Virus record (IMG/VR): IMGVR_UViG_2703719347_000005
Coordinates: 1-26,614 of that record
Reading direction: 5' to 3' (one strand)
DNA length: 26,614 nt
Source: a virus
Taxonomy: Duplodnaviria > Heunggongvirae > Uroviricota > Caudoviricetes
The notes below the pieces were generated by a model. The model was not told the origin of the DNA and did not search any database. It saw nothing but the letters and a program-made list of their open reading frames with translations. Positions within the stretch are counted from its first letter, which is position 1; the number at the start of each line of letters is the position of its first letter. The translations under genes were made by a program, and so were the position numbers. This document shows, piece by piece, positions 406 through 17,973 of this stretch.

Positions 406-611
406 CTAAAGTTGGATACTTAAGAAATGCTTCATAATTCAGTAAGGCATTAGCATAATGGAAATAAAAGTGCAGAGACTATCTCTATGGATGATTAATA
501 CTGTCTTTTTATTGTCACCCATAAATAATCACCAGACTAATACTATCAACTTGATATTTGAAATGTGATCACTTGACTTTTGATACGTTATTTTATAACG
601 GTTAACATATT

Positions 612-662
612 TATAAAAACAACGGCCGTGCCACACGTCCGTTTCAATACTTAACGCACATG
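612..662 (-). repeat. Copy 1 of a ~50-bp hairpin-containing element; near-duplicate of the icd terminator region at 1478-1527
   Basis: Direct repeat of 1478-1527 at roughly 45 of 52 positions. Contains imperfect hairpin AACGGCCGTG/CACGTCCGTT followed on the minus strand by a T-rich run (revcomp of ttataaaaac). Confidence 0.5.
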
Positions 663-1019
663 TATTTTGGTTTAGTCATCATCCGGTTATATGTATTTTA
701 GCCAGGAACAGGTTAAATCATTCCTATATAACTCAAAAATTGAAACCTTATTCTCATGTCATGCTTATATTCATTATTATCGTTATATAAAAAGGCAACC
801 ATAATGTTTAGCAAATTGGCACAAAGTAGCATAAAGGCTATGTTTTAATTACAGGATGTTCAGTCATTTGAATGTATAACATTATAGCTAAACAAATCTA
901 AAACGAAGTCAATAATTTATTGCTTTCACAAAATCTCATTTTGTTTAACATCCATTGAGATTCCTTGCTTTAAATTTTATTTTATATAAGCCATCATTTT
1001 AATTAATTTATTTTTTTGA

Positions 1020-1029
1020 GGGGGGGGGG
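1020..1029. repeat. G10 homopolymeric tract upstream of the iraM-like ORF
   Basis: Ten consecutive G, preceded by T7 and followed immediately by TAATAT (1030-1035); ~80 bp upstream of the ATG at 1107. Confidence 0.9.
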
Positions 1030-1106
1030 TAATATACTCATATGCAAAATCAAGAAATAAACATCCTAATGAACCATATTAAATACCGTGGGATAAGACA
1101 TAACAA

Positions 1107-1430
1107 ATGAAGTGGATAGTAATTGACACGGTAATTCAACCTACATGTGGTATATCTTTTTCAGCCATATGGGGTAATATGAAAATGATCATCTGGTATC
1201 AATCTACTATATTTCTCCCTCCTGGCAGTATATTTACACCGGTTAAGTCTGGTATTATCCTTAAGGATAAAGAATATCCTATTACTATTTATCACATCGC
1301 ACCATTCAACAAGGATTTATGGAGTTTACTCAAAAGCAGTCAAGAGTGTCCTCCAGGAGAAAGCAAAATAACAAATAAATGTTTACATAATAGTTGCATT
1401 ATAAAAATATGCCCATATGGGCTCAAGTAA
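1107..1430 (+). CDS. iraM: Anti-adaptor protein IraM-like (107 aa)
   Basis: 107-aa ORF in AT-rich DNA ~100 bp from the icd fragment. Size and position match iraM (ycgW) next to icdC in E. coli K-12, and the N-terminus ([12 protein letters not shown]...) agrees with my recollection of IraM. Unverified by search. Confidence 0.55.
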
Positions 1431-1475
1431 TGGGCTTCATATAAATATGCTCGATATGCTATTAATAATATCCAC

Positions 1476-1527
1476 ATAAATAAAACAACGGGCGTGTTAT
1501 ACGCCCGTTTCAATATTTAACACATGG
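1476..1527 (-). terminator. Intrinsic terminator downstream of the icd 3' end (copy 2 of the repeated element)
   Basis: Perfect hairpin AACGGGCGT-gttat-ACGCCCGTT (1487-1509) followed on the minus strand by a GTTTTATTT run; lies just 3' of the icd stop codon (1533-1535). Confidence 0.6.
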
Positions 1528-1532
1528 AGAGA

Positions 1533-1692
1533 TTACATGTTTTCGATGATCGCTTCACCAAACTCTGAACATTTCAGCAGCTTAGCGCCTTCCATCAGAC
1601 GTTCGAAGTCATAAGTTACGGTCTTGGCATTGATTGCGCCTTCCATACCTTTAACAATCAGGTCAGCCGCTTCAGTCCAACCCATATGGCGC
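1533..1692 (-). pseudogene. icd: 3'-terminal fragment of the isocitrate dehydrogenase gene (icdC-like), prophage attachment-site duplication
   Basis: Minus-strand translation reads ...[53 protein letters not shown], matching the Icd C-terminus. Homology to icd stops abruptly near 1692, with an in-frame stop just upstream. Confidence 0.85.
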
Positions 1693-1995
1693 AGCAATAT
1701 CTACGCCATAAATTCTTAAGAGACTGATTTTATTATTTATTTAACCAATGCATCGAATTTTTATTGCCTTAAACTACATTGTTTAACTTGTTGATTTAGA
1801 TAATTTTAAGCTTCGTTTTGGGGAATAAATTATCGCCTTTGACCCAAAACCTATCGGCCATTACAACGTGGCGCCAGGGACTAAAGCTTTGCTCCTGAGC
1901 TAACGCGACGAGCAGTTGTACCTCGACCCGGTTCACTGGGTTACGCGCCAGGGTGGTGGGACAAACCGCCATTGATTAATGCGAAGTACTGATAA

Positions 1996-2029
1996 TATAA
2001 AAAATAAAAACCGGGATAGAGTATCCCGG
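1996..2029 (-). terminator. Rho-independent terminator of the 147-aa cargo ORF
   Basis: Hairpin CCGGGATA-gag-TATCCCGG (2011-2029), followed on the minus strand by T-tract TTTTTATTTTTT, 8 bp after the stop at 2037-2039. Confidence 0.6.
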
Positions 2030-2036
2030 CTCAAAG

Positions 2037-2480
2037 TTAGTGCACCGTAAGCTTTGATGGATTATCAGAGATGTCGAATGAAAACTCATCCCCATCTTTA
2101 TTGAAGCTGAAAGAATCAACATTATTTGTCTTAACGGACACTAAATCACCTAAAGGCCCATATACGCAAGTTGCCGTTCCACCGTTAGTAAACAACACTT
2201 CCTTGGTCACACCGGATACATTGGTAATTGTATTTACAGAAACCACGTTTGCTAAATTTTTTGGATAAGCATATTTGATTGACGAATAGTTGATGGTGAG
2301 CACGGTTCCACTATTGCTAATGGCAGCTCGATGGCCCCCATTCATCTCAGCCACCATACTCCCGTCTGGATAATAAGTCACTTTATGCCCATTTTGTTCA
2401 ATAACTTTTTTCCCGTCGGAATACTCAGTTACTGTATTAATACCCAACTGAAAAACTTTCGGTTGTTCATTATCTGCCAT
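2037..2480 (-). CDS. Hypothetical protein (147 aa), prophage cargo near the attachment site
   Basis: Uninterrupted ORF with its own terminator. No signal peptide or recognisable motif; Gly/Asn/Thr/Val-rich, beta-rich appearance. Confidence 0.5.
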   Translation of the reverse strand: MADNEQPKVFQLGINTVTEYSDGKKVIEQNGHKVTYYPDGSMVAEMNGGHRAAISNSGTVLTINYSSIKYAYPKNLANVVSVNTITNVSGVTKEVLFTNGGTATCVYGPLGDLVSVKTNNVDSFSFNKDGDEFSFDISDNPSKLTVH

Positions 2481-2666
2481 TTAATTCCCCTTTTTTTCTC
2501 CTGAAGAAACCCCATCAACCTTTACTTACTTTGTTAATATACACAAATATTTTTATAAATCCGCAGCCTAGATCAAATAAATGCTCATTGTTTTCAGCTG
2601 AGCCCTATCGAACTAATACAGAAATGAACTAAACGAATAAAATTTTTCTATTCTAGAAAATTGATA

Positions 2667-3932
2667 CTACTTAACCTGTAACAGGTCGGAGTATCTTGTA
2701 GTATAGCAAGGTGAAAGCATTTCCCGCTTCATCTGCCAGGCCGTTTGGATCCCCTGCCCTGCAAAATACAGCGTTCCCCTTCCGTCTTTCGCATTGAGAT
2801 GGTCGAGTACTTCCATCAGTTTCTCGCTATTCCGCCGTGGCACGTTATCATCAAACAAGTTTAGCTGGGCCACCCCCTGACTGTAGAAATCCCCCAGCAT
2901 CACTCCGGCTTTCTGGTAGCGATACCCGTCTCGCCAGATTGCATCGAGACATTCCGTCGCCGCTGTGATTATGTCCCGACTGTCCTGGGTCGGGGTCAAT
3001 AGTTTCACTGATGCACTATTGCCGTAGTACGGCTCATTCAGAGCAAATGGGCTGGTTTTGACGAATGCAGAGATAAAGCGGCAGTACTGATGCTCACCAC
3101 GGAGTTTCTCCGCGGCACGGGATGCGTATAAGCATATCGCCTGGCGCATCTCTTCGTAGGTGGAAATCCGCTGCCCAAAGCTGCGACTACAGACAATCTC
3201 CTGCTTTACCGGCGCGAACTCCTCAAGACCGAGACATGGCTCTCCGCGTAGCTCCCGCACGGTTCGCTCCAGTACCACATTAAAATGCTTCCGGATAAAA
3301 CGGATATCGGTATCCGCCAGTTGCAGTACAGTTTTAATCCCCATGGCCTCCAGTTTTTTACTGATGCGGCGCCCGACGCCCCAGACCTCATCCACCGGAA
3401 GCAAAGCCATCAACTTCCTCTGTCTTTCCAGGTTCGACAGATCCACCACGCCTCCGGTCTGCCGCTGCCACTGTTTCGCGGCGTGATTGGCCAGCTTCGC
3501 CAGGGTTTTAGTCTGGGCTATGCCGACGCCGACCGTTAGGTGTGTCCTGCGCAGAACCGTCTCGCGAATTTCCCTGCCAAAGTCGGTAAGGTCGCGACAA
3601 TTCCGAACTCCTGTCAGGTCGCAAAATGCCTCATCAATACTGTAAATTTCGCAGCGTGGAGAGAGTTCCTCCAGCGTTGTCATCACTCGGTTGGACATAT
3701 CGGCATAAAGCTCATAGTTGCTGCTAAACGCGATAATACCGTGCCGGCGAAACACGTCCTTTTGCTTGAAATAAGGCTCACCCATTTTGACGAAGGGCTT
3801 CGCTTCTGGCGAGCGGGCGATCACACAGCCGTCGTTGTTTGACAGAACGACCACCGGACGCCCTTTCAGGTCAGGACGAAATACGGTCTCGCACGATGCA
3901 TAAAATGAATTCACATCACAAAGCGCAAACAT
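2667..3932 (-). CDS. umuC: Translesion DNA polymerase V catalytic subunit UmuC (Y-family polymerase)
   Basis: Starts MFALCDVNSFYASCE with the SIDEAFCDLTG catalytic motif, ~421 aa. ATG is at 3930-3932, one nt after the umuD stop. The ORF-track 5' extension to 3992 is rejected. Confidence 0.9.
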   Translation of the reverse strand: MFALCDVNSFYASCETVFRPDLKGRPVVVLSNNDGCVIARSPEAKPFVKMGEPYFKQKDVFRRHGIIAFSSNYELYADMSNRVMTTLEELSPRCEIYSIDEAFCDLTGVRNCRDLTDFGREIRETVLRRTHLTVGVGIAQTKTLAKLANHAAKQWQRQTGGVVDLSNLERQRKLMALLPVDEVWGVGRRISKKLEAMGIKTVLQLADTDIRFIRKHFNVVLERTVRELRGEPCLGLEEFAPVKQEIVCSRSFGQRISTYEEMRQAICLYASRAAEKLRGEHQYCRFISAFVKTSPFALNEPYYGNSASVKLLTPTQDSRDIITAATECLDAIWRDGYRYQKAGVMLGDFYSQGVAQLNLFDDNVPRRNSEKLMEVLDHLNAKDGRGTLYFAGQGIQTAWQMKREMLSPCYTTRYSDLLQVK

Positions 3933-3933
3933 C

Positions 3934-4353
3934 TTAGCCAGCTGATTTAATGATGTACGTAACCACCCCGAACACGTCGAGAGTGTCCTCACTACCGACG
4001 ACTATTGGCGAATATGCAGGGTTCATTGGGTTAAGCTGAACCCGCGGATGCAGTTGCAGCTTCTTAACGGTGAATTCCCCATCCACAGCAGCAATAACGA
4101 TATCGCCATGAACTGCTGTTCTTGAGCTATCCACGACCAGAAGATCACCTTCCCCTATGCCTGCGTCTTTCATGCTGTCGCCGGCGGCTTTGACAAAATA
4201 CGTCGCACTTGGGTGGTTAACGAGCAACTCGTTCAGATCAATACGTTGCTCAACATAATCCTGCGCTGGACTAGGAAAGCCGCACTGCACAAGGTCACTG
4301 TACAACGGGAGCAGCATGATCTGGCGTAACTCAACGGGCGTGTAGAACTGCAT
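3934..4353 (-). CDS. umuD: UmuD, LexA-like self-cleaving accessory subunit of polymerase V
   Basis: 139 aa from ATG 4351-4353 ([13 protein letters not shown]...). Conserved Cys-Gly cleavage site (LVQCGFPSP), Ser (GDSMKD) and Lys (TVKKLQL) present. Confidence 0.9.
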
Positions 4354-4372
4354 AATAAACTCGCTCACAAAA

Positions 4373-4816: not shown

Positions 4817-4934
4817 GAAATATCTGGAAGCTTTAGGCATCTTCTTGGAAGATAGACGAGCGCAAAGACGCACACAGCAATGATGTTATGTAGTATTTTC
4901 CCCTTGAGTGTGCCTGCTCAAGGGGATTTTTTAT
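4817..4934 (+). repeat. Direct repeat copy 1 (~118 bp), homologous to 7965-8079, ending in an intrinsic terminator
   Basis: Shared GAAATATCTGGAA, a 22-bp identical core GCGCAAAGACGCACACAGCAAT (4860-4881 and 8008-8029), and a terminator hairpin with conserved loop. Confidence 0.6.
4900..4934 (+). terminator. Rho-independent terminator (plus strand) overlapping the 3' end of the invertase gene
   Basis: CCCCTTGAG-tgtgcctg-CTCAAGGGG followed by ATTTTTTAT. The minus-strand version has no U-tract, so it is not the invertase terminator. Confidence 0.6.
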
Positions 4935-5487
4935 CGCCGCATTGTACCGGCAAATTTTTGTAAATAGTCTTCACATCTACGCCTATCACATCTGCGATCT
5001 GTTGCCGAGTAGCGCCGTTCTCCAGCATTCTGCGGCACCGCTCCACCACTTCTTCAGTCATTACCCGGCGGCGGCCGCCGACTCTCCCCTGCTCCCTCGC
5101 TGCGGCTAACCCGGCTCGGGTACGCTCCACTATCAGCTCGCGCTCCATTTCTGCCAGGGCGCTCATGACGTGGAAGAAGAATCGCCCTGCTGGCGTCGAA
5201 GTGTCGATCGAGTCGGTAAGGCTGCGGAAATTCACCCCACGCGCCTGCAACTCTGACACGAGCGTAATCAGATCGCGCACGCTGCGGCCCAGCCGATCCA
5301 GTTTCCAGACCACCAGCACATCACCCGGGCGGAGCCGTCGCAGCGCTCGCTTCAAACCTGGCCGCCGGGCATTCTTCCCGCTGGCCATATCCTCGAAAAC
5401 CAGCTCACATTCTGCGCGGATCAGCGCGTTTTTCTGTAAATCGAGGTTTTGATCCCCGGTTGATACCCTCGCATAGCCAATCAGCAC
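4918..5487 (-). CDS. Serine DNA invertase, Gin/Hin/Pin/Cin family
   Basis: MLIGYARVSTGDQNLDLQ...VVWKLDRLGRS...FRSLTDSIDTSTPAGRFFFHVMSALAEMERELIVERT closely matches Gin/Pin over the catalytic domain. GTG start at 5485-5487 with SD AAGGAG 7 nt upstream. C-terminal ~45 aa diverge from what I recall of Gin/Pin. Confidence 0.9.
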   Translation of the reverse strand: MLIGYARVSTGDQNLDLQKNALIRAECELVFEDMASGKNARRPGLKRALRRLRPGDVLVVWKLDRLGRSVRDLITLVSELQARGVNFRSLTDSIDTSTPAGRFFFHVMSALAEMERELIVERTRAGLAAAREQGRVGGRRRVMTEEVVERCRRMLENGATRQQIADVIGVDVKTIYKNLPVQCGDKKSP

Positions 5488-5510: not shown

Positions 5511-5539
5511 ATTGTAAAAAGCCGCGGCCATTCGCTCAA
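5511..5539 (-). promoter_or_regulatory. Putative sigma70 promoter of the invertase gene, -35 overlapping crossover site L
   Basis: On the minus strand: -35 TTGAGC (5539-5534), 17-bp spacer, -10 TACAAT (5516-5511). The -35 hexamer lies inside the left half of the 26-bp site. Confidence 0.3.
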
Positions 5540-5556
5540 ACCCTCGTTTGGGCGAA
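5531..5556. other. gix/hix-like 26-bp recombination site L
   Basis: TTCGCTCAAACC-CT-CGTTTGGGCGAA: two 12-bp half-sites (TTC....AAACC) around a 2-bp core, as in gix/hix/cix. Exact reverse complement occurs at 11080-11105. Confidence 0.65.
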
Positions 5557-5923
5557 GCCTCTTTTTGGAGCAAAAAACATGGCCGAACTTAACCCGCCAC
5601 TGGGCACGACGACGCCGGAAATATTCATGGACAACGTTAAGCGCGCTGACGAGCTGGTTAACGGTCCGGCCGGAACGGTTGACGACCGCGGCGGTGAACC
5701 ACTCGATACCTGGCGCCAGATGATGGCGAAAAACGATGAGGTCAGGCAGAACCTGATCCCGCTCAGTAAGCAATACCAGACGCTGGCAGCGGCGCAGGCG
5801 GATATCGCGAATATTCCGGTGGGGTCGACCACGTATTACCGTAGCCCGGATGACAACGCGTTAGCTGTAGAAGTGATCAATAACGCCGGTACGCTGCAGC
5901 CTACCGGGCGGAAAATGCCATCT
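5531..5923. repeat. Left arm of ~390-bp inverted repeat (site + RBS + first ~115 codons of fibre A)
   Basis: First 48 bp are 100% identical to revcomp of 11058-11105; the next ~345 nt are roughly 85-90% identical by eye to the fibre B 5' end. Confidence 0.85.
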
Positions 5924-7918
5924 TATTCTTCGCTACGCGGGGCGAACATTCTGTTTGATGCTCTGAATGAATATTCAGCAAATGATCCTAAATTCGGTGC
6001 GTGGGACTGGTATCGCGGAGCAGTGATCACCTTCAGCACTACTGATGCCAATATTTCGTTACCGACTCCAGTGGCACAGTATTCCGGCGTATGGTCTGCA
6101 GATAAATATTATGACCTTGCCCGCCTGCCTGTAAGGGTTGGTGATAAGTTAACCTTTTCCGTGCTGGCGTGGTTCCAGGATGCCGGTGCTATGTTCCATA
6201 TTTTCTGGATGTCCACCGCTGGCGCTGTTATTTCGTCTAAATCACAGCTTGCTCTGGCCGCAGGTATAAATACGCCGGTTATCACAGATGTCATTCCATC
6301 CGGCGCATCCTACGTCAGGATCCGGGTTGAAAATACTACGGCAGGGATATTTAAGGTCGGTGCTTATGCTGCTGCGTTGGGGGCTATTCAGCCTGATTTT
6401 GTTCGCGCCACGCCGGATAAAACTTATCTGTCAGCCGTCATATCATCCGGTATTTCGGGGTTAACATCACGCGTCGATGCGCTCCAGGGAGCTATCTCTG
6501 TTGGTTATGCTTATGCAGCTGCCTGGCAAGTCGGGAAATTTATCAACCCAACTACAGGGGCCATCACTGATAACTCTGCGCTGAACTGCGCAATCATTCC
6601 GCATTCCGACGGGGATGGCTGGCTGGTGACAGCCCTTGTGACAGGATCGGCGACTGCTCTGGCCGTGTACATGAACAGCGCCGGGATGGTATTGGGTGTT
6701 GAAGGGCGGGGAACGGCAACCCCGCAGCAGTATACTAATTATCGTCTTAACGTTCCTGCCGGGACAACACAGATCGGTATAACGGGTCGTAATTCTGCGG
6801 AAATTGCTGTTAAAAAACTTGCTGTCGTTGAGACGGCCAAAGTACTGGCATCGATCGATTCTCTGGATGTCAGGGTACAAACAATAGAGGACTCTCTTGT
6901 TTATGATTTTATTAAACACGACGTCACGATTACCTCAGGAGCATATATAAACCGTGCTGATGGCAGTGTGGTGGCAAATGCTGCATTTGACTGTGCAATT
7001 TTTAATTACACAGCAGGAGACCGCTGGAAAGTCACAGCGAGGGTTAACGGCAGTGGAGTTTCGCTCGCGGTGTATATGAACAGTGCCGGGACGGTTATCG
7101 GCACCGAAGGGAACGGTACTACAGAATCGGTGGACTACACCGATTACGAGCTAACACCTCCTTCCGGCACCGCCAAAATCGGGATCACCACCCGTATAGC
7201 CGTCCCCATTATTGCCAAAAAATATGTAGTCGTTCCCGGTGGTAGCACGGTCAGTCCGTGGTCTGGAAAAGTCATCGATGTGATGGGTGACAGCAACGTT
7301 GCTTATAACAAATGGCAACCTCTTGTCGCGGCAGAACTGGGCTGCACTTTTCTGAATCACGGGGTCGGTGGTTCGAAAATAGCCAAACCGGATAGCTCCT
7401 CAACGCAAATCAGCATGTGCGACGATGTGCGAATCAATGCTCTGGATACATCGGCGGCGGCGTGGATTTGCGGTCCGTGGGCAACAAACGACTGGGCGCA
7501 AAATATTCCGATTGGAAGTATCACCGACTCAGTGAATACAACCGTTTACGGCGCGCTGAACATCATCGCTCAGAAACTGCGGGCGCGGGCCCCAACAAAA
7601 CCTATCCTGTGGGCCACGCCGTTCAATGGGGACTATGATTCTCCACGTTCAGCGGCATGGGTTGACGGTGAAACAAATGGCTATGGGCGGGTTTCTGACT
7701 ATGCAGCGGCCATACGCGCCGTGGCGTTGCGATATGGATTCCCCCTAATAGACCTTAACGCTGACTGTGGCTGGACAAAATTCAATAGCACTAGTTTTTT
7801 ATTAACCGAGGGGGATACAAATCCGTCCCGCATCCACCTCAATGCGGACGCGGGGCCTGTGCGTATTTCCTCACTGATAACCGATCGGCTTACTGCCCTA
7901 CAGAAACTGGTGGGCTAG
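5579..7918 (+). CDS. Alternative tail fibre A (779 aa): shared N-terminal anchor, three repeated ~100-aa modules, C-terminal GDSL/SGNH-like esterase domain
   Basis: N-terminus MAELNPPLGTTTPEIF... shared with fibre B for ~115 aa. C-terminal region carries MGDSNVA, HGVGGSK, WATNDW and a late His (SRIH), reading like SGNH hydrolase blocks. Currently antiparallel to the tail operon. Confidence 0.7.
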   Translation: MAELNPPLGTTTPEIFMDNVKRADELVNGPAGTVDDRGGEPLDTWRQMMAKNDEVRQNLIPLSKQYQTLAAAQADIANIPVGSTTYYRSPDDNALAVEVINNAGTLQPTGRKMPSYSSLRGANILFDALNEYSANDPKFGAWDWYRGAVITFSTTDANISLPTPVAQYSGVWSADKYYDLARLPVRVGDKLTFSVLAWFQDAGAMFHIFWMSTAGAVISSKSQLALAAGINTPVITDVIPSGASYVRIRVENTTAGIFKVGAYAAALGAIQPDFVRATPDKTYLSAVISSGISGLTSRVDALQGAISVGYAYAAAWQVGKFINPTTGAITDNSALNCAIIPHSDGDGWLVTALVTGSATALAVYMNSAGMVLGVEGRGTATPQQYTNYRLNVPAGTTQIGITGRNSAEIAVKKLAVVETAKVLASIDSLDVRVQTIEDSLVYDFIKHDVTITSGAYINRADGSVVANAAFDCAIFNYTAGDRWKVTARVNGSGVSLAVYMNSAGTVIGTEGNGTTESVDYTDYELTPPSGTAKIGITTRIAVPIIAKKYVVVPGGSTVSPWSGKVIDVMGDSNVAYNKWQPLVAAELGCTFLNHGVGGSKIAKPDSSSTQISMCDDVRINALDTSAAAWICGPWATNDWAQNIPIGSITDSVNTTVYGALNIIAQKLRARAPTKPILWATPFNGDYDSPRSAAWVDGETNGYGRVSDYAAAIRAVALRYGFPLIDLNADCGWTKFNSTSFLLTEGDTNPSRIHLNADAGPVRISSLITDRLTALQKLVG

Positions 7919-7964
7919 TTAACAGTGCTTATCGCGTAGTAGTGTTTCTAAAATGCTGTAATAA

Positions 7965-8079
7965 GAAATATCTGGAAATGTTTTGAATTATCCAGGAGTA
8001 TATCAACGCGCAAAGACGCACACAGCAATAATGTCATTCATCGCTTTTCCCCCGGCGTGCCTCCGGGGGGATTTTTTAG
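7965..8079 (+). repeat. Direct repeat copy 2 (homolog of 4817-4934) downstream of fibre A
   Basis: See copy 1. Stem sequence differs from copy 1 with compensatory changes (CCCCTTGAG/CTCAAGGGG versus CCCCCGG/CCGGGGG) while the loop (GTGCCT) is conserved. Confidence 0.6.
8049..8079 (+). terminator. Rho-independent terminator downstream of fibre A
   Basis: CCCCCGG-cgtgcct-CCGGGGGG followed by ATTTTTTAG on the plus strand. Confidence 0.6.
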
Positions 8080-8173
8080 TCCTTTATGACGTCGTCTTGT
8101 CCCGTCCTCAGGGAAGCTATAGTGGTCTTATTTCACGTGGTAACTGAAACTGAATACAGTACGAGTCAGCTTA

Positions 8174-8890
8174 TTACGCGATTGATAAAATCCCTTCATA
8201 GCTCTGAGTGACGAGGTCAACCATATCCATTTTTTCAGCCTGAGAGAGTATTCCGCCCGCCCACACCCCTGTCATTGCAATATCCACAGCGCCTAAAAAA
8301 TCTGACGTGATATAGGAGTAGCCAGCATAAATCGACTTATTCGGAACAGGGATTGCGCGGGCGGTAACAGCGACCTGTTCAGTCGATAACAGCTCACTGT
8401 TCGTCATTTTATGAAGCTGAACCATAGAGTTATTCACATCGAGGAAAACCAGATGGAATTTACTGGTGTCCAGTGGAGTCGCGAGGGTGGCGGTTGCTGT
8501 CCCGCTTGACCGCCCCACAATCCCCCTGATTTGAGGAATGGCCGGTTCAAAAACAAACGTATCCCCCTGCGGTTGTACAGCAGAGCCGAGATAGTTACCC
8601 ATGCCCAGCGCTCTGGTAGTGCTTTTAGGCCGGAGTAACACCATCATGGTTTTAACCGGGTTATCCGTGACTTTCAGATCATAACCCCCCGCACCAACAC
8701 CACCCGTAAACCAGTACGTGTTGATGACAGGTGCCCCCACTATGGTTGGCTCTTCCCCAAAAATAGCCCCAAAGTTCTGGCTGCCAAATGTGGCAATGCT
8801 CGCGATAGACGGCTGCGGATAACTCGAACCAATAATACAGTCATCATCCCAGACGGCATCAACATTAATAGATAATCCCTGATTAGACAT
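8174..8890 (-). CDS. Hypothetical protein (238 aa) co-transcribed downstream of fibre B; possible fibre accessory or assembly protein
   Basis: Start ATG 8888-8890 (MSNQGLSINVD...), 7 nt after the fibre B stop, with GAGG SD overlapping that stop. The ORF-track 5' extension to 8989 overlaps fibre B and is rejected. No family recognised. Confidence 0.5.
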   Translation of the reverse strand: MSNQGLSINVDAVWDDDCIIGSSYPQPSIASIATFGSQNFGAIFGEEPTIVGAPVINTYWFTGGVGAGGYDLKVTDNPVKTMMVLLRPKSTTRALGMGNYLGSAVQPQGDTFVFEPAIPQIRGIVGRSSGTATATLATPLDTSKFHLVFLDVNNSMVQLHKMTNSELLSTEQVAVTARAIPVPNKSIYAGYSYITSDFLGAVDIAMTGVWAGGILSQAEKMDMVDLVTQSYEGILSIA

Positions 8891-8897
8891 AAGTACC

Positions 8898-11057
8898 TCA
8901 CAACGTGATTTCAAACATGACGCAATAGTTATCCATACGGATAACCTCGCTATTAAGGGTAAAACTGATAATGTCGCCCTGGCTGTCACGCAGACAACCG
9001 CGCGGCCCGGTCAGGCGACCCGGTGACTGGCCGGTGGTGCCGCCGTGAAAGGCATACTGAAGAATGGCCCCGGCAGGGATATCCGCTGCCGTTGAGACAG
9101 TCACCGCGTCATAACGGATATTGAGGCTGGTCAGCGGGATAATCGCACGTGTGTCAGGGTGCAGTAGCCGGAAACCATAATTACCCGGATCAGAAACAAT
9201 GCTGGTATCAAAGCTCAGCCGACCCACCGGATTCAGCCACACCGTAGCGGCGCGGCCCTGGCGTTGATGACTAACTGGCATCAGTGGTTTTGCCGCTTTG
9301 CCGTCAACCAGCGCCCGCTTTTCCATCACGGAAATATAAAGCCCCTGAATATAGGAACTTCTGGCGGTGAGGTGTGCGCCATCCGTGTAATCGTGAATGT
9401 ACATCGGGTTCGTGAGATAGACATTTTCGCGTGTCTGCGCCAGCTCCAGCAGCGCCATCGGAATGGTGGGATAGGCTGTGTTCGGCGTCCGGTTTATCCA
9501 GCTGCTGAACTGATAAACAAAAATCGGCACATGGACTTCTTCGCCGCACACAGCTGAGGCGTGGGCATCGATCCGCTGTTGCATGGTGTCGAAAATAGCC
9601 TGATAGTCTGCTTTGGTGGTGCCTTTCGTCTGGTCTGCTTCGCCCTGCATCCAGTACATCGCCACAGGCCGGTAGGTTTTCCCGAGCTCCTGAGCGCGGG
9701 CGTAACCATAACTGATATCATCGAAAACTCGCTGAATGTACTTTCCGGGATACGCCGCCAGCACATCAATGGGTTGACCGCCCTCCGCCGGAACAGAACC
9801 CAGAATGATCAGATCATCCGGGTTAAAGCCATAGTTCTCGGCAATCATCAGTTCGTACCAGCCGCGAATGCTGGCCCCCATTGGGGTTTCCCATGCCTGG
9901 CCGTTATCGGTGTTTTTATACGTCTCGACGTAGGGAACCAGCTGAGCATGGTTTTCTGCCGAAGTGCCGGAGCCATCCTGCGCCCGTGCCCCACCGATAA
10001 AACGCAATGCGGTATACAGCGCGGCTATCGTAATCAGGGCCTGAGTATTCACGCCAGCGGCAAGCGATTGTCCGTAACCGATTTTATGGGCAATATCCGG
10101 CAGGCGTGAGTAAATGGACTGATTAAAATAGCGCAGAAATTCAGGGGAAATAATCGCTTTAACTTCCAGAGTTTCGGCTTTCAGCGATTTTACCTCTCCA
10201 TGATTCGCTTCAATTTTCCCCGCAGCAAATGCCCCGTTTTTTTTGATACCCACAGCCGGACGATTTAACGTATCACGCCACGCCATAACGAAATCGCGGA
10301 ATGTCGCAGTAGAAATGCTGGCGTTGGCTGGTAACCCTAAGATACTGGCAATCGTAAGATTGTTGATCTCAGCCTTCCCTGATTTCAGTACCCCTTTTTT
10401 ATTAATGGCAAAACAAAGCCGTTTAAGGGTGTCATAAACTGAAACAGCGTTACCGTCAGCCACTAATGATAAAGCAGAATTCCCGATATTCAGACGTGAT
10501 GACGAGATGATCGACGAAATAAATTCATCCGCTGAGAGCTTTTTTAATTCTGCTTTATTCGCCTTAATCCACCCGGCAAGCAACCGGCCCGCCTCATCCA
10601 GCCCTACCGAATAATTTTTTCGTTCATCCATAAAGGCAAGAGACATACCCGCTGGCGCATTCTGGCTGAACGTTGCTCTGATCAAATCAGTCATGATATT
10701 GACCAGCTCCTGAGATGGCATTTTCCGCCCGGTAGGTTGCAGCGTCCCGCCGTTATTCATGTACTCGTCCGCCAGCGCCCAGACGTCCTGGCTGCGAACA
10801 TAGGTCGTGGAGCCAACGGGGATATTCGCGATATCTGCCTGCGCTGCCGCCTCATTCATATACTGCTTGCTGAGTGGGATCAGGTTCTGCCTGACCTCAT
10901 CGTTTTTCGCCATCATCTGGCGCCAGGTATCGAGCGGTTCACCTGCGCGGTCGTTAATCGTTCCGGCCGGACCGTTCACCAGTTCGTCAGCGCGCTTGAC
11001 GTTATCCAGGAATATTTCAGGCGTCGTCGTTCCCAAAGGCGGGTTAAGTTCGGCCAT
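8898..11057 (-). CDS. Alternative tail fibre B (719 aa): shared N-terminal anchor, SASA-like acetylesterase domain, extra C-terminal domain
   Basis: N-terminal ~115 aa shared with fibre A. Residues ~325-585 carry YGQSLAAG, WMQGEAD and DGAHL, consistent with SASA/DUF303-type SGNH esterases. Colinear with the tail operon, so this is the presumably expressed fibre. Confidence 0.7.
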   Translation of the reverse strand: MAELNPPLGTTTPEIFLDNVKRADELVNGPAGTINDRAGEPLDTWRQMMAKNDEVRQNLIPLSKQYMNEAAAQADIANIPVGSTTYVRSQDVWALADEYMNNGGTLQPTGRKMPSQELVNIMTDLIRATFSQNAPAGMSLAFMDERKNYSVGLDEAGRLLAGWIKANKAELKKLSADEFISSIISSSRLNIGNSALSLVADGNAVSVYDTLKRLCFAINKKGVLKSGKAEINNLTIASILGLPANASISTATFRDFVMAWRDTLNRPAVGIKKNGAFAAGKIEANHGEVKSLKAETLEVKAIISPEFLRYFNQSIYSRLPDIAHKIGYGQSLAAGVNTQALITIAALYTALRFIGGARAQDGSGTSAENHAQLVPYVETYKNTDNGQAWETPMGASIRGWYELMIAENYGFNPDDLIILGSVPAEGGQPIDVLAAYPGKYIQRVFDDISYGYARAQELGKTYRPVAMYWMQGEADQTKGTTKADYQAIFDTMQQRIDAHASAVCGEEVHVPIFVYQFSSWINRTPNTAYPTIPMALLELAQTRENVYLTNPMYIHDYTDGAHLTARSSYIQGLYISVMEKRALVDGKAAKPLMPVSHQRQGRAATVWLNPVGRLSFDTSIVSDPGNYGFRLLHPDTRAIIPLTSLNIRYDAVTVSTAADIPAGAILQYAFHGGTTGQSPGRLTGPRGCLRDSQGDIISFTLNSEVIRMDNYCVMFEITL

Positions 11058-11105
11058 GTTTTTTGCTCCAAAAAGAGGCTTCGCCCAAACGAGGGTTTGA
11101 GCGAA
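10713..11105. repeat. Right arm of ~390-bp inverted repeat (fibre B 5' end + RBS + site R)
   Basis: Reverse complement matches 5531-5923; outermost 48 bp are identical. Confidence 0.85.
11080..11105. other. gix/hix-like 26-bp recombination site R (inverted relative to site L)
   Basis: TTCGCCCAAACG-AG-GGTTTGAGCGAA on the plus strand, the exact reverse complement of site L. Confidence 0.65.
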
Positions 11106-11133
11106 AGAAAAGTTGAAAGGGATTTTTTTGGTA

Positions 11134-14100
11134 TTAAGCAGCGTCGCCGGGGTATGTGGCGTCGTCGTACTGGTAGAACGATTCGAGGTATTCTTTTGCG
11201 GTGACCTGGCAGGTTCCGTCAGACTGCGGGGCGATCTCCTCTACAATGGCGTCGTAGACGTGGCGCGTTGAGCCGCAGAACACCAGGCGGATCGGCTCGA
11301 TGGTTGCCGACGACAGGTCAACCCGCATGGGATCATCAAACTCGCTCAGGTGCGGGACTGACAGCTGAAAATCACCCACCCGGCTCGCCACCATCAGCCC
11401 GGATGCAGAGCCATCCTGATAGCGGATTAGCGCGCGGGGATTTTCGAAAGACCAGTCCAGCGGCTCCGTAACGGTGAACGTTGTCACGCCACCAGCCGTT
11501 GTCATCGCCTCCACCAGACAGGAAATTGTGTTGTTACCCGGAATATCATCCGTGAGCACAATGCGATCGCCCGTGTTGTAGCACAGCGCGTCCAGCTCGG
11601 TAGTGGTCTGGAACGTCACCCGCTGCTGCAGGTATTTCATCAGGCGACGCATGCCGATCTGGTAGGCGTGATCCTGATTCAGTACCCCATCGAGTTTGTA
11701 GTTCTCGATTTTCACCGGCGTGGGATTATCAGGCGTCCGGCATTTAACGGTCTCCTCCGCCCAGGTAGTCCCGTTGATGTATGTCACGTCGACGCCATCA
11801 AAATCATCGTCGGACGGTACGGTAAATCCGCTCTGCAGCTCCTCCACCATCTCATGCGGAGTGATCACGCCAGTCCAGGGCTTAATCCCCTCACGGTTGA
11901 CCGTCGCCAGGCCATCACTCAGCAGAAAACGTGACTTCCCGGCATTGGCTATCTTCTGCAGCATTTCCAGCGCTGAGATACTGTCGCCCGTGGCGAAATC
12001 AAAATTTTCGCCCCGTGGCGTCCAGTACGCGGATTCCAGCGCGTTGATGGTGTCGACGTCCATCTCCAGCCCCAGCGAGTTCCCGACATGCAGCAGCGCC
12101 CCCGAAATGGTTCTGGCGGTTCCTGAGTCGTAGGCCCGCGTGGCCACAACGTTTACGCGGCGGTCCGACTGCGCCGCCAGCTTCCCACCCGTCTCAACGG
12201 TCACCGCCATCAGCGACACGCCGGGATAGGATGAAGGGCGCGTCAGCAGTCGCCCGCGCAGTGCCTGCCAGTACATCGAATCCCTGGCGTTGTTTGAGCC
12301 CTGCTCATTGCGCCGACGGCAGCGAACCTCTACCAGTCCCGGAGAACTGAGGGTGATCCGCTCAGTGAAACCTAACCCGTTGACGTTTTTCAGCGCATAC
12401 TCGCCCTGGTGACTCACCCACCCCGATCCGGAACCGTAGACGCGATACTGTATCTCCCACTCAACGTGGCGGATCCGTTTTTTGCCCTTACTGTCAAAGC
12501 CGCAAATACCGTTCGGGAAAGAGAAATTCACCTCGAACATATCGACGGTCTCATTTTCAGGGCAAACCAGGAACGGCCCCAGCCAGCTCAGCGTGTCGTT
12601 AAGACCAGTGGCCTCATAGTCGATCATCGTCCGGGCGGTGAATCCCGGCCATGACTCATCAACGGCACCGTTAACCAGGCGCGCCACCGTCGCCGTTGTG
12701 CCGTCGGTCGAGACAATGCGGTACTCATTCCCGCGGTGAGCAAGTGAAAGCCGTTGCACCCCCTCCGGCATGCCGGAAAAGGCCGTTCCCGTGGCGCTGT
12801 TATAGGCAAGCGTCACATTCGCCGTTACCGCCGGGCTGCCGCCGGTTGATGCCGTGCCGGAGGTGTAAACCGGGGCATCACCGAAAACAGCTGCAGGCAG
12901 CGAAGAGGACGTGATCTCCCCACCCGCGAACGGACTGGCCGACTCGGTTATCAGTACGGTGCCGCCGTTGTCCTGCGCAACCAGGCCGGCGCCAGTGAGT
13001 CCCTCGGTGATGGCCGCCAGCAGTCCCGACATCGAGACGTAGTTAGCCACCAGCGACACCGGGTAGGTAACTCCCTGCCAGGTGATCGTGAACGTGCTGG
13101 AGCTGGTCGAAAAATCGTAGGTGGTCGGGGCCGCACTGGCCTGGACTTTTGCCACACTCCCCCCGGTGCCGGGCACTGCAGCCTGACCGGGGGTATATGA
13201 CGCGATAAACAGATCGTAATCGACAGAGTTAAACCCCAGCGTCACCGGCATTCCAACCACCGGCGCGATCTCCGTCAGCAGCGGGCTTGCGATAACGCTG
13301 TATCCGGCCGCCGTGGTGATCTGGTAGTTCGCCTGGGCTTTCAGTTCGACCACGGCGCCAGCGACCCAGCTGGGCGGCAGTGAGTTATCGTTCTCGTCAT
13401 TATCGTCATCATCATCCGTATCCAGCCCGGTAAACGTTACGCTCGAACCGGATACGGTCATGCTGTCTGCGATAATATCGTCGGCATCCGGCGACGTCTG
13501 GGCCATATCCAGCCCGGTACCGGATGATGTCCCTCCGACCTCAGTACTATTGACCCAGTTTTCACTGCGCTCATCGCCGGAAACGTCCGCGCCTGGTGGA
13601 AAATAGGTGATGTTGAAACCCGGCAGCGTTGAAGCTGGCGTACTGCCTACCCTGATATCGCCAGTGGTATAAATCAGTTCACCGACACCGAGACACAGCA
13701 GCATCTGGACGCGCATTTTCGTAGGATCGGCGGCATCGAACCGGGTAACGGGCTGGACCACATAATCCGGGTAGATACGCACCCGGCCAAACACCTCACG
13801 AATGGCATCACCGAGTTTTGCGGTGTTGGCCCGCGCCGGGTTCAGGTCGAGACTCCGCCCTGTGGATGAGGTATAGCCGCCCGTATCGATGCGGCTCATC
13901 AAAACAAGCGAATAGGCTGCAGCGGCAACGGAGATACCGACGCCGATCCACGCGATTGTGGCGGCCTCCAGCCCGAAGGGGACCGGATAAAGCCGTACAT
14001 CACTATCAGGGCGGATCACACAGGTAGCCCACTCGCCTGGCGGAATTGACTGACCCTCAACCTCAACGGTCAGCGGTGGGACATCCCGATCGGTATAGTT

Positions 14101-14202
14101 TTCAACATTTTCCACCAGCCAGGTGCGGATACTGGTTACACCATGCTCATGCGTTTCGAGTGGTTCACCGGGAAGCCGGGACGGGTAGAAACGAATGGTC
14201 AT
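11134..14202 (-). CDS. Tail tip / central fibre host-specificity protein (1022 aa), possibly a fused I/J-like protein
   Basis: Large protein directly downstream of the NlpC/P60 gene with a 4-nt ATGA overlap. N-terminal ~100 aa include a hydrophobic stretch (AATIAWIGVGISVAAAAYSLVLM), reminiscent of lambda gpI. Confidence 0.55.
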   Translation of the reverse strand: MTIRFYPSRLPGEPLETHEHGVTSIRTWLVENVENYTDRDVPPLTVEVEGQSIPPGEWATCVIRPDSDVRLYPVPFGLEAATIAWIGVGISVAAAAYSLVLMSRIDTGGYTSSTGRSLDLNPARANTAKLGDAIREVFGRVRIYPDYVVQPVTRFDAADPTKMRVQMLLCLGVGELIYTTGDIRVGSTPASTLPGFNITYFPPGADVSGDERSENWVNSTEVGGTSSGTGLDMAQTSPDADDIIADSMTVSGSSVTFTGLDTDDDDDNDENDNSLPPSWVAGAVVELKAQANYQITTAAGYSVIASPLLTEIAPVVGMPVTLGFNSVDYDLFIASYTPGQAAVPGTGGSVAKVQASAAPTTYDFSTSSSTFTITWQGVTYPVSLVANYVSMSGLLAAITEGLTGAGLVAQDNGGTVLITESASPFAGGEITSSSLPAAVFGDAPVYTSGTASTGGSPAVTANVTLAYNSATGTAFSGMPEGVQRLSLAHRGNEYRIVSTDGTTATVARLVNGAVDESWPGFTARTMIDYEATGLNDTLSWLGPFLVCPENETVDMFEVNFSFPNGICGFDSKGKKRIRHVEWEIQYRVYGSGSGWVSHQGEYALKNVNGLGFTERITLSSPGLVEVRCRRRNEQGSNNARDSMYWQALRGRLLTRPSSYPGVSLMAVTVETGGKLAAQSDRRVNVVATRAYDSGTARTISGALLHVGNSLGLEMDVDTINALESAYWTPRGENFDFATGDSISALEMLQKIANAGKSRFLLSDGLATVNREGIKPWTGVITPHEMVEELQSGFTVPSDDDFDGVDVTYINGTTWAEETVKCRTPDNPTPVKIENYKLDGVLNQDHAYQIGMRRLMKYLQQRVTFQTTTELDALCYNTGDRIVLTDDIPGNNTISCLVEAMTTAGGVTTFTVTEPLDWSFENPRALIRYQDGSASGLMVASRVGDFQLSVPHLSEFDDPMRVDLSSATIEPIRLVFCGSTRHVYDAIVEEIAPQSDGTCQVTAKEYLESFYQYDDATYPGDAA

Positions 14203-15072: not shown

Positions 15073-15538
15073 GATTCGGCCACTCCTTATTCAGGGCGAT
15101 ATCAAGCAACGAACTTCCGACTATCCATTCCGGGTAATGCCCCCATCCAGACGGCGGCAATGGGCGCTCCCAGAGTTCTACTGGCGCGGTATATCTCCAG
15201 TAAAGTCCGCCTTCTGGCGTGGGGCCTTTATAAATATCCGTGAAACGACACACGTAATTTTTCAGCCCTACAGGCGTTAATAACGGTATGTTGAACCACG
15301 CCGCCCCATCTGATAACTCATCCCGAAACCACGCCTCAAAAGCCTGCGCCTGGGCATCAGAAAAAATCCAGGCCAGATCTGTTTGGGTTGGTGTCGAGGT
15401 GTAGGCACGCCGCTGCCGTGCCCGGCCAGTTACCATCTGAGTCCGTTTCAGAGGAGATACAGGAGTTAAACCAAAACTCTCTTTAAGCGGACCAGGCAGG
15501 TAAGCGGAGGGGTAATAAAGCGTTGTGGTGATAGCCAT
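15059..15538 (-). CDS. Minor tail protein (159 aa)
   Basis: Immediately downstream of the tape measure gene (stop/start overlap at 15538); no motif recognised. Confidence 0.4.
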   Translation of the reverse strand: MAITTTLYYPSAYLPGPLKESFGLTPVSPLKRTQMVTGRARQRRAYTSTPTQTDLAWIFSDAQAQAFEAWFRDELSDGAAWFNIPLLTPVGLKNYVCRFTDIYKGPTPEGGLYWRYTAPVELWERPLPPSGWGHYPEWIVGSSLLDIALNKEWPNHDAD

Positions 15539-17973
15539 CAGCTAATTTTCCTCCCCGAGGTAGTTTTCCCCATCAAGGCCTTATGCAAATCACCCTGACC
15601 GCTTGCGACTGAATTAACCGCCTTCCGGTATCCCCTTTCTGCCCCCTCATCTGCAGCTTTACGGACCAGCGCCAACGTTGCATCGGAAGGGTTACCATTG
15701 ATGGGGATATTGATTGTGGGCGAATAAATCGCGCCGCCACCTGTTGACTGGTTTGCAACTCGATCCAGAGTGGCATCCAGTTTTGCGCTGGTTTTAGCTG
15801 TCGTAACGCGCTCACCTTTCTGCAGGAGCCAGGTTCCTGTTTCGGGCACAGAGTCGATACCGTCGTGAGCCTGTCCATGAAGCGCCGATCCGATAGCAGT
15901 CATGAACACGCCAGCAGCAGCTGCCGCAGCTATTGCTTGGGTTGACGCCACCACGGGACCTACATAGGGAACACCAATCCAGGCAGTGAAGGCACTCAAC
16001 GCTGCCATTGCTACCTGAGCAGCCGCATATTGCAGTAATGCAGCCCCAACAGATTGAATGAATGTCGCCGCAAAGTCCTGAGCGTTTAATTTACCGGTTT
16101 CCGCCCAGTTAATTACCATATCAGTTAAACTACTAAACGTTTGTGTACCTACTTGCTGCATATTTGCATATAGGTTTGAATATGCAGCAGCTTGATCTGA
16201 TATTCCAGAAACGAAACCTGCGACACCATCGTTTTGTAACTCTTCTAACTTCTTATAGTGTTCCTCTTGAATTCTTAGCCTTTCATTCAGCGAGTTTTGA
16301 AGCGCTTCTTTCTTTTTATCGTATAGACTTTTTTCAATATCTCCAGACTGAAATTGATTTAAAAGCTCTTCCTGTCGAGAAGCAAAATCTTGCTGAATAT
16401 CATTATTATCCTGCATGCGTGAACGTTCACGACTACCAGAATAACGGCCAACTATTTGGTTTTCAAACCCTTGGCGGACTAATTTATTCTGTCTTTCGAG
16501 ATCTGAAACATATTCAGCTACTTTCGCATTTTCCTGATTAAGCCGTAACTCTTCCTTCTTGGAATCAAGGATTTTAGCCGCAGTTCGAAGTTGTTCCTTC
16601 TGCCCTTCAGATAATTTTTTCAGGTTTCCGCTGGTTATATCAAAATTAATCTTCTCCAGCTCGGTTACTTCTGCAGTTTTTTTACCGGTTGTTTCAATGA
16701 GGGCGGCCTGCTTCTGTAAATCAAGAAGCCTACTTTTGAAAGCGTTGTCAGTCGGATTGCTTTTTGGTTTTATTTTGGGCTGATTCTGGTTAGACTCCCC
16801 TTTTCCCAACGAAAAATCATTATCCTTAGCCGTATCAATGCCAAGATCAGAAAGAAGAGATGTGAGTCCTTTCGCTCCTCTATCTACCTGCTCCGGGGTC
16901 ATTCTTGACTTTATCGCGCGAAGAAATTGAAGACGTTTAGTTAAAAAGTCTAATTCGTCTTTTTGTTCCTTACTTTGATTCCCTCGTTTATTAAGGAATT
17001 CAATGCGCTGTGAAATATCACTTTCATCAGCAGCATTATAATTACCTGATACAGCACCTATACGAGAGCGGGTATAAGTAGCAATGGCCCCCAAGCCACC
17101 AGCAATACGCCCCACAACCCCGGCAAGGCTTATGGCTTCACCAACCAAGTCTGATAGCCCCTGAAGAACAGCAGGATCGGTGAAGACGTCACGAATGTCA
17201 TCAAGCCCATCCTGCAATGGCGTAAGGTCAACCTTAGCCAGCCCCGAAGCCATTTCCATTTTAAGACCGCGGGCGCTAGTCTCTATATCCTGAAAGAACT
17301 GATTAACCTTAACAAGGTTATCAATATCTTCTTGCGGTGGTGCGACACCAAAATCTTTTGATAGCTGGATAAACTGTTTCAGCTTCTCGTTGTTGTTGTC
17401 GAACAACGGCAGCATTTTTGACAGGTCATTACCCAGACTTTCGAGAATATTAGTTTTCCCGGCCTGAGTGGGTATTTTCTGTAATGCTTCACTGATTGCC
17501 ATCAGCTGCTTATCTGGGGATTGCTGAGCCAGCTTCTGAGCTGAAAGCCCCAAAGTATCCAGCGCCTGAGCAGCCTCACCTGATTTATTCAGGACCGCAT
17601 CGCCGACCTTATCATTAATGTCTTTGAAAATATCGGCTATGTTGTCACCGGTTAAACCGGCTTGTTCAGCAGCATATTGCCAGGATAACAAATCCTGGGT
17701 GGACATTTTAAGAGATTTTGCCCAGCGATCAACTTCTGTAACCTGCTGTGCAGTATTTTTAACAATGGCTAGCCCAGCAGCGCCAATACCAACAGCTGCG
17801 GTAGCCGCTGCAGCCCCCACAGCAATGATTGAAGAACTTACCTCTTTAGCGTCTTTTTTTACCTGGTCGCGCCACTTCTGAGAAGATCTTTCGGCTTTAT
17901 CCATGCCCTGAACAAATCCACCTACTTTAGCGATCAGGTCGATTGTTAACGTACCGAGGGACTTGCCAGACAT
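15538..17973 (-). CDS. Tail tape measure protein (811 aa)
   Basis: Gly/Ala-rich hydrophobic N-terminal segment (AVGAAAATAAVGIGAAGLAIV), long coiled-coil centre, Ala-rich C-terminal region; SD GGAG upstream of the ATG at 17971-17973. Confidence 0.85.
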   Translation of the reverse strand: MSGKSLGTLTIDLIAKVGGFVQGMDKAERSSQKWRDQVKKDAKEVSSSIIAVGAAAATAAVGIGAAGLAIVKNTAQQVTEVDRWAKSLKMSTQDLLSWQYAAEQAGLTGDNIADIFKDINDKVGDAVLNKSGEAAQALDTLGLSAQKLAQQSPDKQLMAISEALQKIPTQAGKTNILESLGNDLSKMLPLFDNNNEKLKQFIQLSKDFGVAPPQEDIDNLVKVNQFFQDIETSARGLKMEMASGLAKVDLTPLQDGLDDIRDVFTDPAVLQGLSDLVGEAISLAGVVGRIAGGLGAIATYTRSRIGAVSGNYNAADESDISQRIEFLNKRGNQSKEQKDELDFLTKRLQFLRAIKSRMTPEQVDRGAKGLTSLLSDLGIDTAKDNDFSLGKGESNQNQPKIKPKSNPTDNAFKSRLLDLQKQAALIETTGKKTAEVTELEKINFDITSGNLKKLSEGQKEQLRTAAKILDSKKEELRLNQENAKVAEYVSDLERQNKLVRQGFENQIVGRYSGSRERSRMQDNNDIQQDFASRQEELLNQFQSGDIEKSLYDKKKEALQNSLNERLRIQEEHYKKLEELQNDGVAGFVSGISDQAAAYSNLYANMQQVGTQTFSSLTDMVINWAETGKLNAQDFAATFIQSVGAALLQYAAAQVAMAALSAFTAWIGVPYVGPVVASTQAIAAAAAAGVFMTAIGSALHGQAHDGIDSVPETGTWLLQKGERVTTAKTSAKLDATLDRVANQSTGGGAIYSPTINIPINGNPSDATLALVRKAADEGAERGYRKAVNSVASGQGDLHKALMGKTTSGRKIS

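Follow-up and report, generated by a model that had tools for sequence, protein, structure and literature searches.

Does inversion of a DNA segment in a tailed-phage genome exchange two receptor-binding fibres that carry different esterases? The question is raised by a window of 26,614 nt, the whole stretch of DNA analyzed here, from the IMG/VR virus record IMGVR_UViG_2703719347_000005 (Caudoviricetes), in which two fibre genes with a common N-terminal anchor lie between a gene for a Gin-like serine DNA invertase and a gene for a tail tip protein. All coordinates and strands are given on the window. The gene order is invertase, fibre A, a hairpin, an open reading frame (ORF) designated ORF238, fibre B, a TipJ/gpJ-like gene, and the remaining tail and head genes of a siphovirus operon. 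A preliminary description of this DNA had proposed that fibre B carries a sialate O-acetylesterase-like (SASA) domain differing from the esterase of fibre A, and that inversion would switch enzymatic specificity. We put at about 80% the probability that fibre B is a modular esterase receptor-binding fibre that is exchanged with the GDSL-type fibre A by Gin-like inversion of whole genes.

Two predicted esterase fibres behind a common anchor

Fibre B is encoded by a complete minus-strand ORF of 719 amino acids (8898..11057) directly downstream of tipJ, in what we presume to be the expressed position, and it matches phrog_4201, "tail fiber protein," over its full length (E = 2e-114). It comprises an N-terminal anchor (10704..11057, minus strand; residues 1-118) common to fibre A and to 28 fibre clusters of related phages, a shaft region (10098..10703, minus strand; residues 119-320), a predicted SASA/CE20-type SGNH acetylesterase domain (9288..10097, minus strand; residues ~321-590), and a predicted C-terminal beta-sandwich domain (8901..9287, minus strand; residues ~591-719). 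The stretch to which the preliminary description had assigned the esterase, 9303-10085, corresponds to fibre B residues 325-585 on the minus strand, and the motifs named there were found where they had been placed: YGQSLAAG at residues 328-335, YWMQGEAD at 468-475 (MQGEAD at 470-475), and YTDGAHL at 557-563.

A sequence search with residues 301-719 of fibre B returned 106 relatives, many of them with a precomputed match to PF03629 and one named "sialate O-acetylesterase family protein." Conservation was counted over 43 aligned relatives, the majority with identities of 25-50%. In block I, G329, Q330, S331, and G335 were present in all 42 sequences that have a residue there; S331, the putative nucleophile, is encoded at 10065-10067 on the minus strand. 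Block II, which had been absent from the preliminary description, comprises G426 (37/43) and G427 (28/43, with Ser at this position in 12). Block III was conserved at Q471 (38/43), G472 (42/43), E473 (41/43), and D475 (39/43). In block V, H562 was found in every one of the 43 sequences and D559 in 37 of them (minus-strand codons 9372-9374 and 9381-9383, respectively). Because the motif residues are near-invariant across relatives, we regard the motifs as selected features and not as chance occurrences.

The only relevant domain match for the esterase region of fibre B was Pfam SASA (PF03629), which 34 of the 43 aligned relatives matched individually (best E, 7.6e-11). A PDB search with a profile of the fibre B family matched 9vyh, a phage "tail spike protein," in an almost full-length alignment (E = 1.1e-23), together with the Arabidopsis DUF303 esterase 2apj (3.6e-7) and the Clostridium acetylxylan-esterase-related protein 1zmb (1.3e-3). 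Block III of fibre B aligned with WYQGESD in 2apj and with WHQGESD in 1zmb, and block V aligned with sDnlHLT in 2apj. Within the 2apj alignment, the QGE.D and D..H blocks fell inside the scoring stretch, and the GQS block aligned only in a second, weak stretch scoring 0.2 bits. A single-sequence phmmer search of residues 301-719 against the PDB yielded nothing but a match of the last 50 amino acids to an NHL-repeat protein (TRIM2/3), which was rejected as spurious; the structures above were reached only with the profile.

Structure prediction was consistent with this family assignment. With the alignment of relatives as input, an AlphaFold2 (AF2) model of fibre B residues 301-719, which includes the last helix of the shaft, had a mean predicted local distance difference test score (pLDDT) of 93.8 and a predicted template modeling score (pTM) of 0.92. 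It consists of a five-stranded parallel alpha/beta/alpha domain followed, from residue ~591, by an all-beta domain. In the model, S331 lies at the end of beta1 (model residues 22-29) and the start of a helix (31-34), QGExD follows the third core strand, and DxxH lies in the loop preceding the last long helix, each the canonical SGNH position. Foldseek searches of the PDB ranked the tailspike of cyanopodophage Pan3 (9vyh) first (1.7e-23), followed by the Xanthomonas CE20 enzyme XAC1771 (5e-14), mammalian SIAE (7e-12), 1zmb, two other CE20 enzymes, and 2apj. Only below these did generic GDSL enzymes appear, and this separation in the ranking indicates that the predicted domain is SASA/CE20-like and not GDSL-like.

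The SASA/DUF303-type reading of fibre B is thus supported by domain searches, which lead to the catalytic family SASA (through the relatives, and through 2apj and 1zmb by profile), and by structure prediction, which yields an SGNH fold whose nearest solved neighbors are SASA/CE20 acetylesterases, with the predicted Ser, His, and Asp conserved and at canonical motif positions. Together, these sequence and model data support the assignment of residues ~321-590 to a SASA/CE20-type SGNH acetylesterase domain. Of the proposed label "sialate O-acetylesterase-type," the family holds; "sialate" stems from the Pfam name only, and nothing indicates a sialic acid substrate. Sialic acid, as in the K1 capsule, was considered as the substrate of fibre B on the strength of that family name and was set aside: the relatives of fibre B are overwhelmingly from Klebsiella, and its structural neighbors use varied acetylated glycans.

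The preliminary description had also remarked on an extra C-terminal domain of ~130 amino acids, and 134 amino acids indeed remain after residue 585. This region is all-beta in the AF2 model, mostly with pLDDT above 90, is conserved in relatives, and aligned with the Pan3 tailspike through residue ~718. A separate hidden Markov model (HMM) built for it matches all seven SASA-type fibre clusters among the related phages (see below). As judged from the alignments and the model, the extra domain is a conserved beta-sandwich partner in a SASA two-domain module; in CE20 enzymes, beta-sandwich domains flank the catalytic core, block I reads GQSNM, and block V reads DxH (PMC12313940). The two-domain module was detected in 2630 cluster representatives at E<=1e-3 and in 1624 at E<=1e-10. 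In the list of the 150 top matches, it stood almost always at the extreme C-terminus of proteins of 400-1500 amino acids.

Fibre A (5579..7918, plus strand; 779 amino acids) adjoins the invertase gene in the window, in the presumed silent position. BLASTP aligned it with fibre B at 77% identity over the first ~118 amino acids, with nothing significant beyond. The GDSL-type esterase domain of fibre A (residues 571-757; 7289-7849, plus strand) matched Pfam Lipase_GDSL_2 (PF13472) with 38.4 bits against a gathering score of 32.9 (E = 2.4e-9), and the RefSeq name of the protein is "SGNH/GDSL hydrolase family protein." Its blocks read GDSN (residues 570-573), GVGGS, and ATND; block V is S750-R-I-H753 (7826-7837), in which Ser replaces Asp, and fibre A may therefore rely on a Ser-His dyad or on another acid. 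The two fibres accordingly carry two esterase subfamilies behind a common anchor, as had been proposed, Lipase_GDSL_2 in fibre A versus SASA in fibre B, both within the SGNH superfamily. The middle of fibre A contains two tandem repeats of ~115 amino acids (residues ~310-420 and ~445-555) that look like duplicated beta-rich, possibly carbohydrate-binding, domains.

Inversion of the fibre segment

Inversion, which the preliminary description had only inferred, was documented by genome comparison. In a megablast search of complete Escherichia coli genomes, the segment 5531..11105 (5575 bp) was found in one piece, 100% identical and in the opposite orientation, in ten chromosomes, with the flanks matching separately. 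Direct blastn alignment gave reversed flanks and a forward 5575-bp center with zero mismatches in the center. In one of these chromosomes, NZ_CP018109 (locus L001), TipJ is followed by fibre A, and fibre B faces the recombinase; the RefSeq coding sequence WP_042346228.1 of this locus equals fibre B in length and position and lies inside the DNA segment that is 100% identical. With a flipped center between identical flanks, the window and the ten genomes differ by one clean inversion. The window is the state with fibre B behind tipJ.

The segment is bounded by inverted repeats of 393 nt, a left arm (5531..5923) that spans the fibre A leader and the sequence coding for its anchor, and a right arm (10713..11105). 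The arms are 85% complementary, and their outer ~75 nt are identical. Each arm starts with a 26-bp dyad, TTCGCTCAAACC-CT-CGTTTGGGCGAA, located 22 nt upstream of the respective ATG. The first putative crossover site (5531..5556) thus precedes fibre A, and the second, an inverted copy (11080..11105), lies between the tipJ stop codon and the fibre B start codon. The half-sites of the dyad are similar to the repeats of the e14 P segment, given as CCTTCTCCCAAACCAA in PMC12529663. When TipJ-side and invertase-side flanks were compared, homology stopped exactly at the outer edge of the dyad in all two-fibre loci. Breakpoints that coincide with the 26-bp dyad, and are not scattered in the 393-nt repeat, argue for site-specific over homologous recombination.

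A candidate enzyme is encoded beside the segment. The predicted 189-amino-acid product of the invertase gene (4918..5487, minus strand) matched the Pfam domains Resolvase (1.6e-49) and HTH_7 (1.3e-5), the DNA invertase family phrog_125 (1.8e-85), and, over residues 1-182, the Mu Gin structures 3uj3 and 4m6f (E, ~1e-71). A promoter-like site for the invertase (5511-5539, minus strand; TTGAGC-17-TACAAT) was noted, with its -35 hexamer within the putative crossover site; this is a consensus match only, of a kind for which the region shows no enrichment. Such an arrangement would allow invertase binding at the crossover site to autoregulate the invertase promoter.

Unlike the crossovers of Mu, P1, and e14, the putative crossover does not fall inside a fibre ORF. 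Each start codon has a putative site 5' of it, so that inversion exchanges entire genes, and the segment contains the anchor twice. The gene facing fibre B across the second site encodes a TipJ/gpJ-like tail tip protein (11134..14202, minus strand), the last gene of the tail operon, which lies upstream of whichever fibre faces it. The protein matches Pfam FNIII-A_GpJ and Phage-tail_3 and bears the RefSeq name "host specificity factor TipJ family." A consensus scan placed a GC-rich, terminator-like hairpin with a T-run (8047..8071, plus strand) 3' of fibre A, where the two gene sets converge.

These features suggest the following mechanism. The Gin-like invertase would recombine the two inverted 26-bp dyads in the leaders upstream of both start codons, and inversion would place a whole fibre gene, and not a C-terminal exon only, behind tipJ and the late tail operon, so that only the TipJ-proximal fibre would be expressed. 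The 118-amino-acid anchor would dock fibre B to the tail tip, followed by the shaft, the esterase, and the beta-sandwich. In the esterase, S331 is the predicted nucleophile, H562 the predicted base, and D559 the predicted acid, with the GQS, GG, and QGExD blocks forming a putative oxyanion hole; the C-terminal beta-sandwich probably assists polysaccharide binding. By analogy with other SGNH fibres, fibre B most likely removes O-acetyl groups from capsule or O-antigen at adsorption. We infer that fibre B is catalytic and that fibres A and B act on different acetylated polysaccharides.

The anchor family and alternative readings

A scan of viral contigs with the anchor yielded 270 relatives, and 79 loci were analyzed. 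Behind this one anchor, the C-terminal parts fell into 28 clusters. The SASA-type module accounts for seven clusters and for 46 of 101 complete fibres; the others comprise approximately ten GDSL-type clusters, one beta-helix cluster, and nine without assignment. Two inverted anchor copies were present in 24 loci, including the window and two E. coli records, and 22 of these 24 had an invertase match in the fetched DNA. The commonest pairing among two-fibre loci was SASA with GDSL (8 loci). Four fibre pairs were found in both orientations in different genomes: the window versus L001, L004/L005 versus L006, L015 versus L026, and L046 versus L048. The 26-bp dyad was almost invariant ~22-50 nt upstream of each fibre ATG across the anchor family (the window and loci L004-L082).

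Klebsiella phage KPP5665-2 (L003) shows the same layout of an invertase and two fibres, at 7613-9565 and 10371-14033. Its SASA-type fibre is annotated "flagellar biosynthesis protein," and the other is a 1220-amino-acid "O-glycosyl hydrolase" beside a TipJ gene annotated "kinase." Such names mislead and conceal the switch.

Several observations weigh against an enzymatic fibre switch. Taken alone, fibre B scored 16.8-17.8 bits against SASA, under the gathering score of 24.8. The residue following S331 is Leu (GQSL), where CE20 enzymes usually have Asn (GQSN(M)). Some CE20 members have a Ser-His dyad or a water-mediated triad (PMC12313940), and a catalytic role for D559 is therefore likely, not certain. 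The dyad was also scored by the scan as a terminator-like hairpin with a T-run, and it was present in 49 of 52 single-fibre loci whose fetched DNA showed no invertase. Within the region, promoter-like matches did not exceed those in shuffled sequences (6 versus 7.5 expected); matches at this chance level speak neither for nor against expression of the invertase-proximal fibre from a promoter of its own.

The presence of the dyad in loci without an invertase, together with its hairpin and T-run, leaves room for a second role. The dyad may be a relic or a ready docking site for cassette exchange, or it may have a second, RNA function; for example, it might also be an RNA hairpin that gates fibre expression. 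We further offer, as a speculative proposal that we consider doubtful, that the dyad is a portable docking point through which whole receptor-binding genes are exchangeable. An invertase acting in cis or from another prophage could flip these genes, and it might even allow their capture by, or exchange among, prophages residing in one host, in an integron- or shufflon-like system for SASA, GDSL, and beta-helix fibres across Klebsiella and E. coli phages.

Identical leaders and ribosome-binding sites and intact ORFs in both genes could also reflect a virion that carries both fibres at once, as in dual-tailspike phages, with inversion altering at most their ratio or representing a rare neutral rearrangement between long repeats. 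The hairpin and T-run before each gene could likewise mean that each needs its own transcription start, and the two tailspikes of one Klebsiella prophage have been taken to broaden host range (PMC12115436). However, the invertase-proximal gene is divergent from the invertase gene and has just 91 nt of upstream sequence, in a region where promoter-like matches do not exceed shuffles. A dedicated Gin-like invertase has been kept beside the cassette at 22 of the 24 loci with two fibres, and both states are known for four pairs; the breakpoints, moreover, lie exactly at the dyad and not at random within the 393-nt repeat, which favors site-specific over homologous recombination. We therefore consider joint production of the two fibres, or a neutral inversion, to be unlikely.

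The low Pfam score and the Leu in block I would also fit an SGNH-like domain in fibre B that has become a catalytically dead binding module, in which case inversion would switch binding and not enzymatic specificity. Yet Ser, His, Asp, and the oxyanion-hole blocks are near-invariant among relatives of 25-50% identity, the pattern expected under selection for catalysis, and related SGNH fibres are active esterases (PMC13123978), which makes loss of catalysis less probable still. That the two orientations are an assembly artefact is very improbable: short-read assemblers can mis-join inverted repeats of this length (~400 nt), but all ten flipped records come from complete chromosomes that were sequenced in independent projects, mis-joins across arms of 85% identity would give chimeric arms whereas the segment is 100% identical end to end, three other fibre pairs also occur in both orientations, and a ~5-kb inversion next to an invertase has been seen experimentally in a Klebsiella prophage (bioRxiv 10.64898/2025.12.17.694638).

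Related systems and prophage surroundings

The closest precedents for the whole-gene fibre switch are the Mu G, P1 C, and e14 P segments, which likewise consist of a small serine invertase beside two convergent alternative sets of fibre genes with 26-bp dyads at the ends. In Mu and P1, the crossover lies inside S, and the constant N-terminal part is outside the segment. The invertible segment of the window instead includes two copies of the anchor (77% amino acid identity) and exchanges whole genes, in contrast to Mu, P1, and e14; it would work as a G or P segment does but represents a structural variant. In e14, crossover takes place within the stfP/stfE coding regions (PMC12529663), whereas the putative sites of the window lie in 5' leaders. 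The alternatives also differ in kind: those of the Gin, Cin, Pin, and Hin systems are binding tips with chaperones, and those of the window are two predicted esterase subfamilies.

With respect to the esterase, the Pan3 tailspike is 16-17% identical to fibre B and belongs to a cyanobacterial podovirus, with a different N-terminal part; in the profile alignment its block III reads HGETSS and its block V reads DFVH. We know of no invertible context for the Pan3 tailspike, and a paper on it or on PDB entry 9vyh was not found in the literature searched. The SASA/DUF303/CE20 enzymes (At4g34215, 2apj; Clostridium acetobutylicum, 1zmb; XAC1771, 7kmm; E. coli NanS, 3pt5; SIAE, 8f9o-r) are 11-19% identical to fibre B and are soluble monomeric or secreted proteins, whereas fibre B is a virion fibre. 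Among the systems closest to the window are the SGNH-esterase tail fibres of Klebsiella prophages, along with G7C gp63.1; the likeness lies in temperate Klebsiella-type siphophage fibres that end in SGNH domains. SGNH is among the most frequent domains of Klebsiella prophage receptor-binding proteins, and two Klebsiella prophage SGNH tail fibres hydrolyze p-nitrophenyl acetate (2026 PLoS Biology, PMC13123978); that study mentions neither inversion, invertase, or recombinase nor SASA. Acinetobacter prophage tailspike esterases that resemble sialate O-acetylesterases (8F9O, 7KMM) have been described together with the Klebsiella prophage carrying two different SGNH tailspikes cited above, again without mention of inversion (2025 Viruses, PMC12115436). 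The ~5-kb inversion seen experimentally in a Klebsiella prophage (sequence type 14 [ST14]) lies beside an invertase and over fibre genes, the domains of which were not analyzed (bioRxiv 10.64898/2025.12.17.694638). In the literature searched, no report was found that reads such a locus as a Gin-type switch exchanging complete esterase fibres. Each ingredient is already known, and their combination as a flip-switch is apparently undescribed.

Capsule and O-antigen specificity restricts both phage therapy and the spread of prophages in Klebsiella and E. coli, and in temperate Klebsiella phages, capsular specificity has lately been recognized to depend in large part on SGNH-esterase fibres. If approximately a quarter to a third of the phages with this anchor do flip two enzymatic fibres, a lysogen would release mixed virions with two host ranges, and genome-based host prediction or association studies would be confounded wherever all encoded fibres are assumed to be expressed. 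Orientation-locked variants would then offer a natural experiment for assigning substrates to SASA-type versus GDSL-type fibre esterases. The occurrence of the same prophage, with Klebsiella-type fibres, in E. coli chromosomes hints that such switches may aid genus crossing.

ORF238 (8174..8890, minus strand; 238 amino acids) belongs to the invertible segment and directly follows fibre B, with which it shares its strand. No NCBIfam model was found for ORF238, fibre A, or fibre B, and ORF238 was likewise without matches in Pfam and PHROG. Its relatives comprise only 17 clusters, restricted to Klebsiella-type sequences, and an AF2 model from this shallow alignment was unusable (pLDDT, 34). ORF238 accompanies fibre-B-type fibres in L002, L004-L006, and L009, with a relative of 35% identity in L018; fibre A is without an ORF238-like partner. 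A conserved "chaperone" partner for all SASA fibres was considered and rejected, given that in KPP5665-2 the gene after the SASA-type fibre (GP21) is not homologous to ORF238.

To the left of the invertase gene, the window contains a umuDC-like operon (2667-4368), located between the invertase and the prophage end, and the E. coli chromosomal genes ycgX and iraM (window 1-4368). These genes match NZ_CP018109, in which a truncated icd copy borders the prophage, with iraM and ycgX next in order (L001, 12753-17575). In E. coli K-12, this icd/iraM/ycgX neighborhood is the site of the e14 prophage. The relatives of the fibres, the invertase, and ORF238 are overwhelmingly from Klebsiella, which suggests a Klebsiella-type phage resident in E. 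coli. Inside a tape-measure-like gene (15538-17973), the interval 16001-17000 has a GC content of 0.40 and an AT skew of -0.19, and the surrounding prophage has a GC content of 0.50-0.60.

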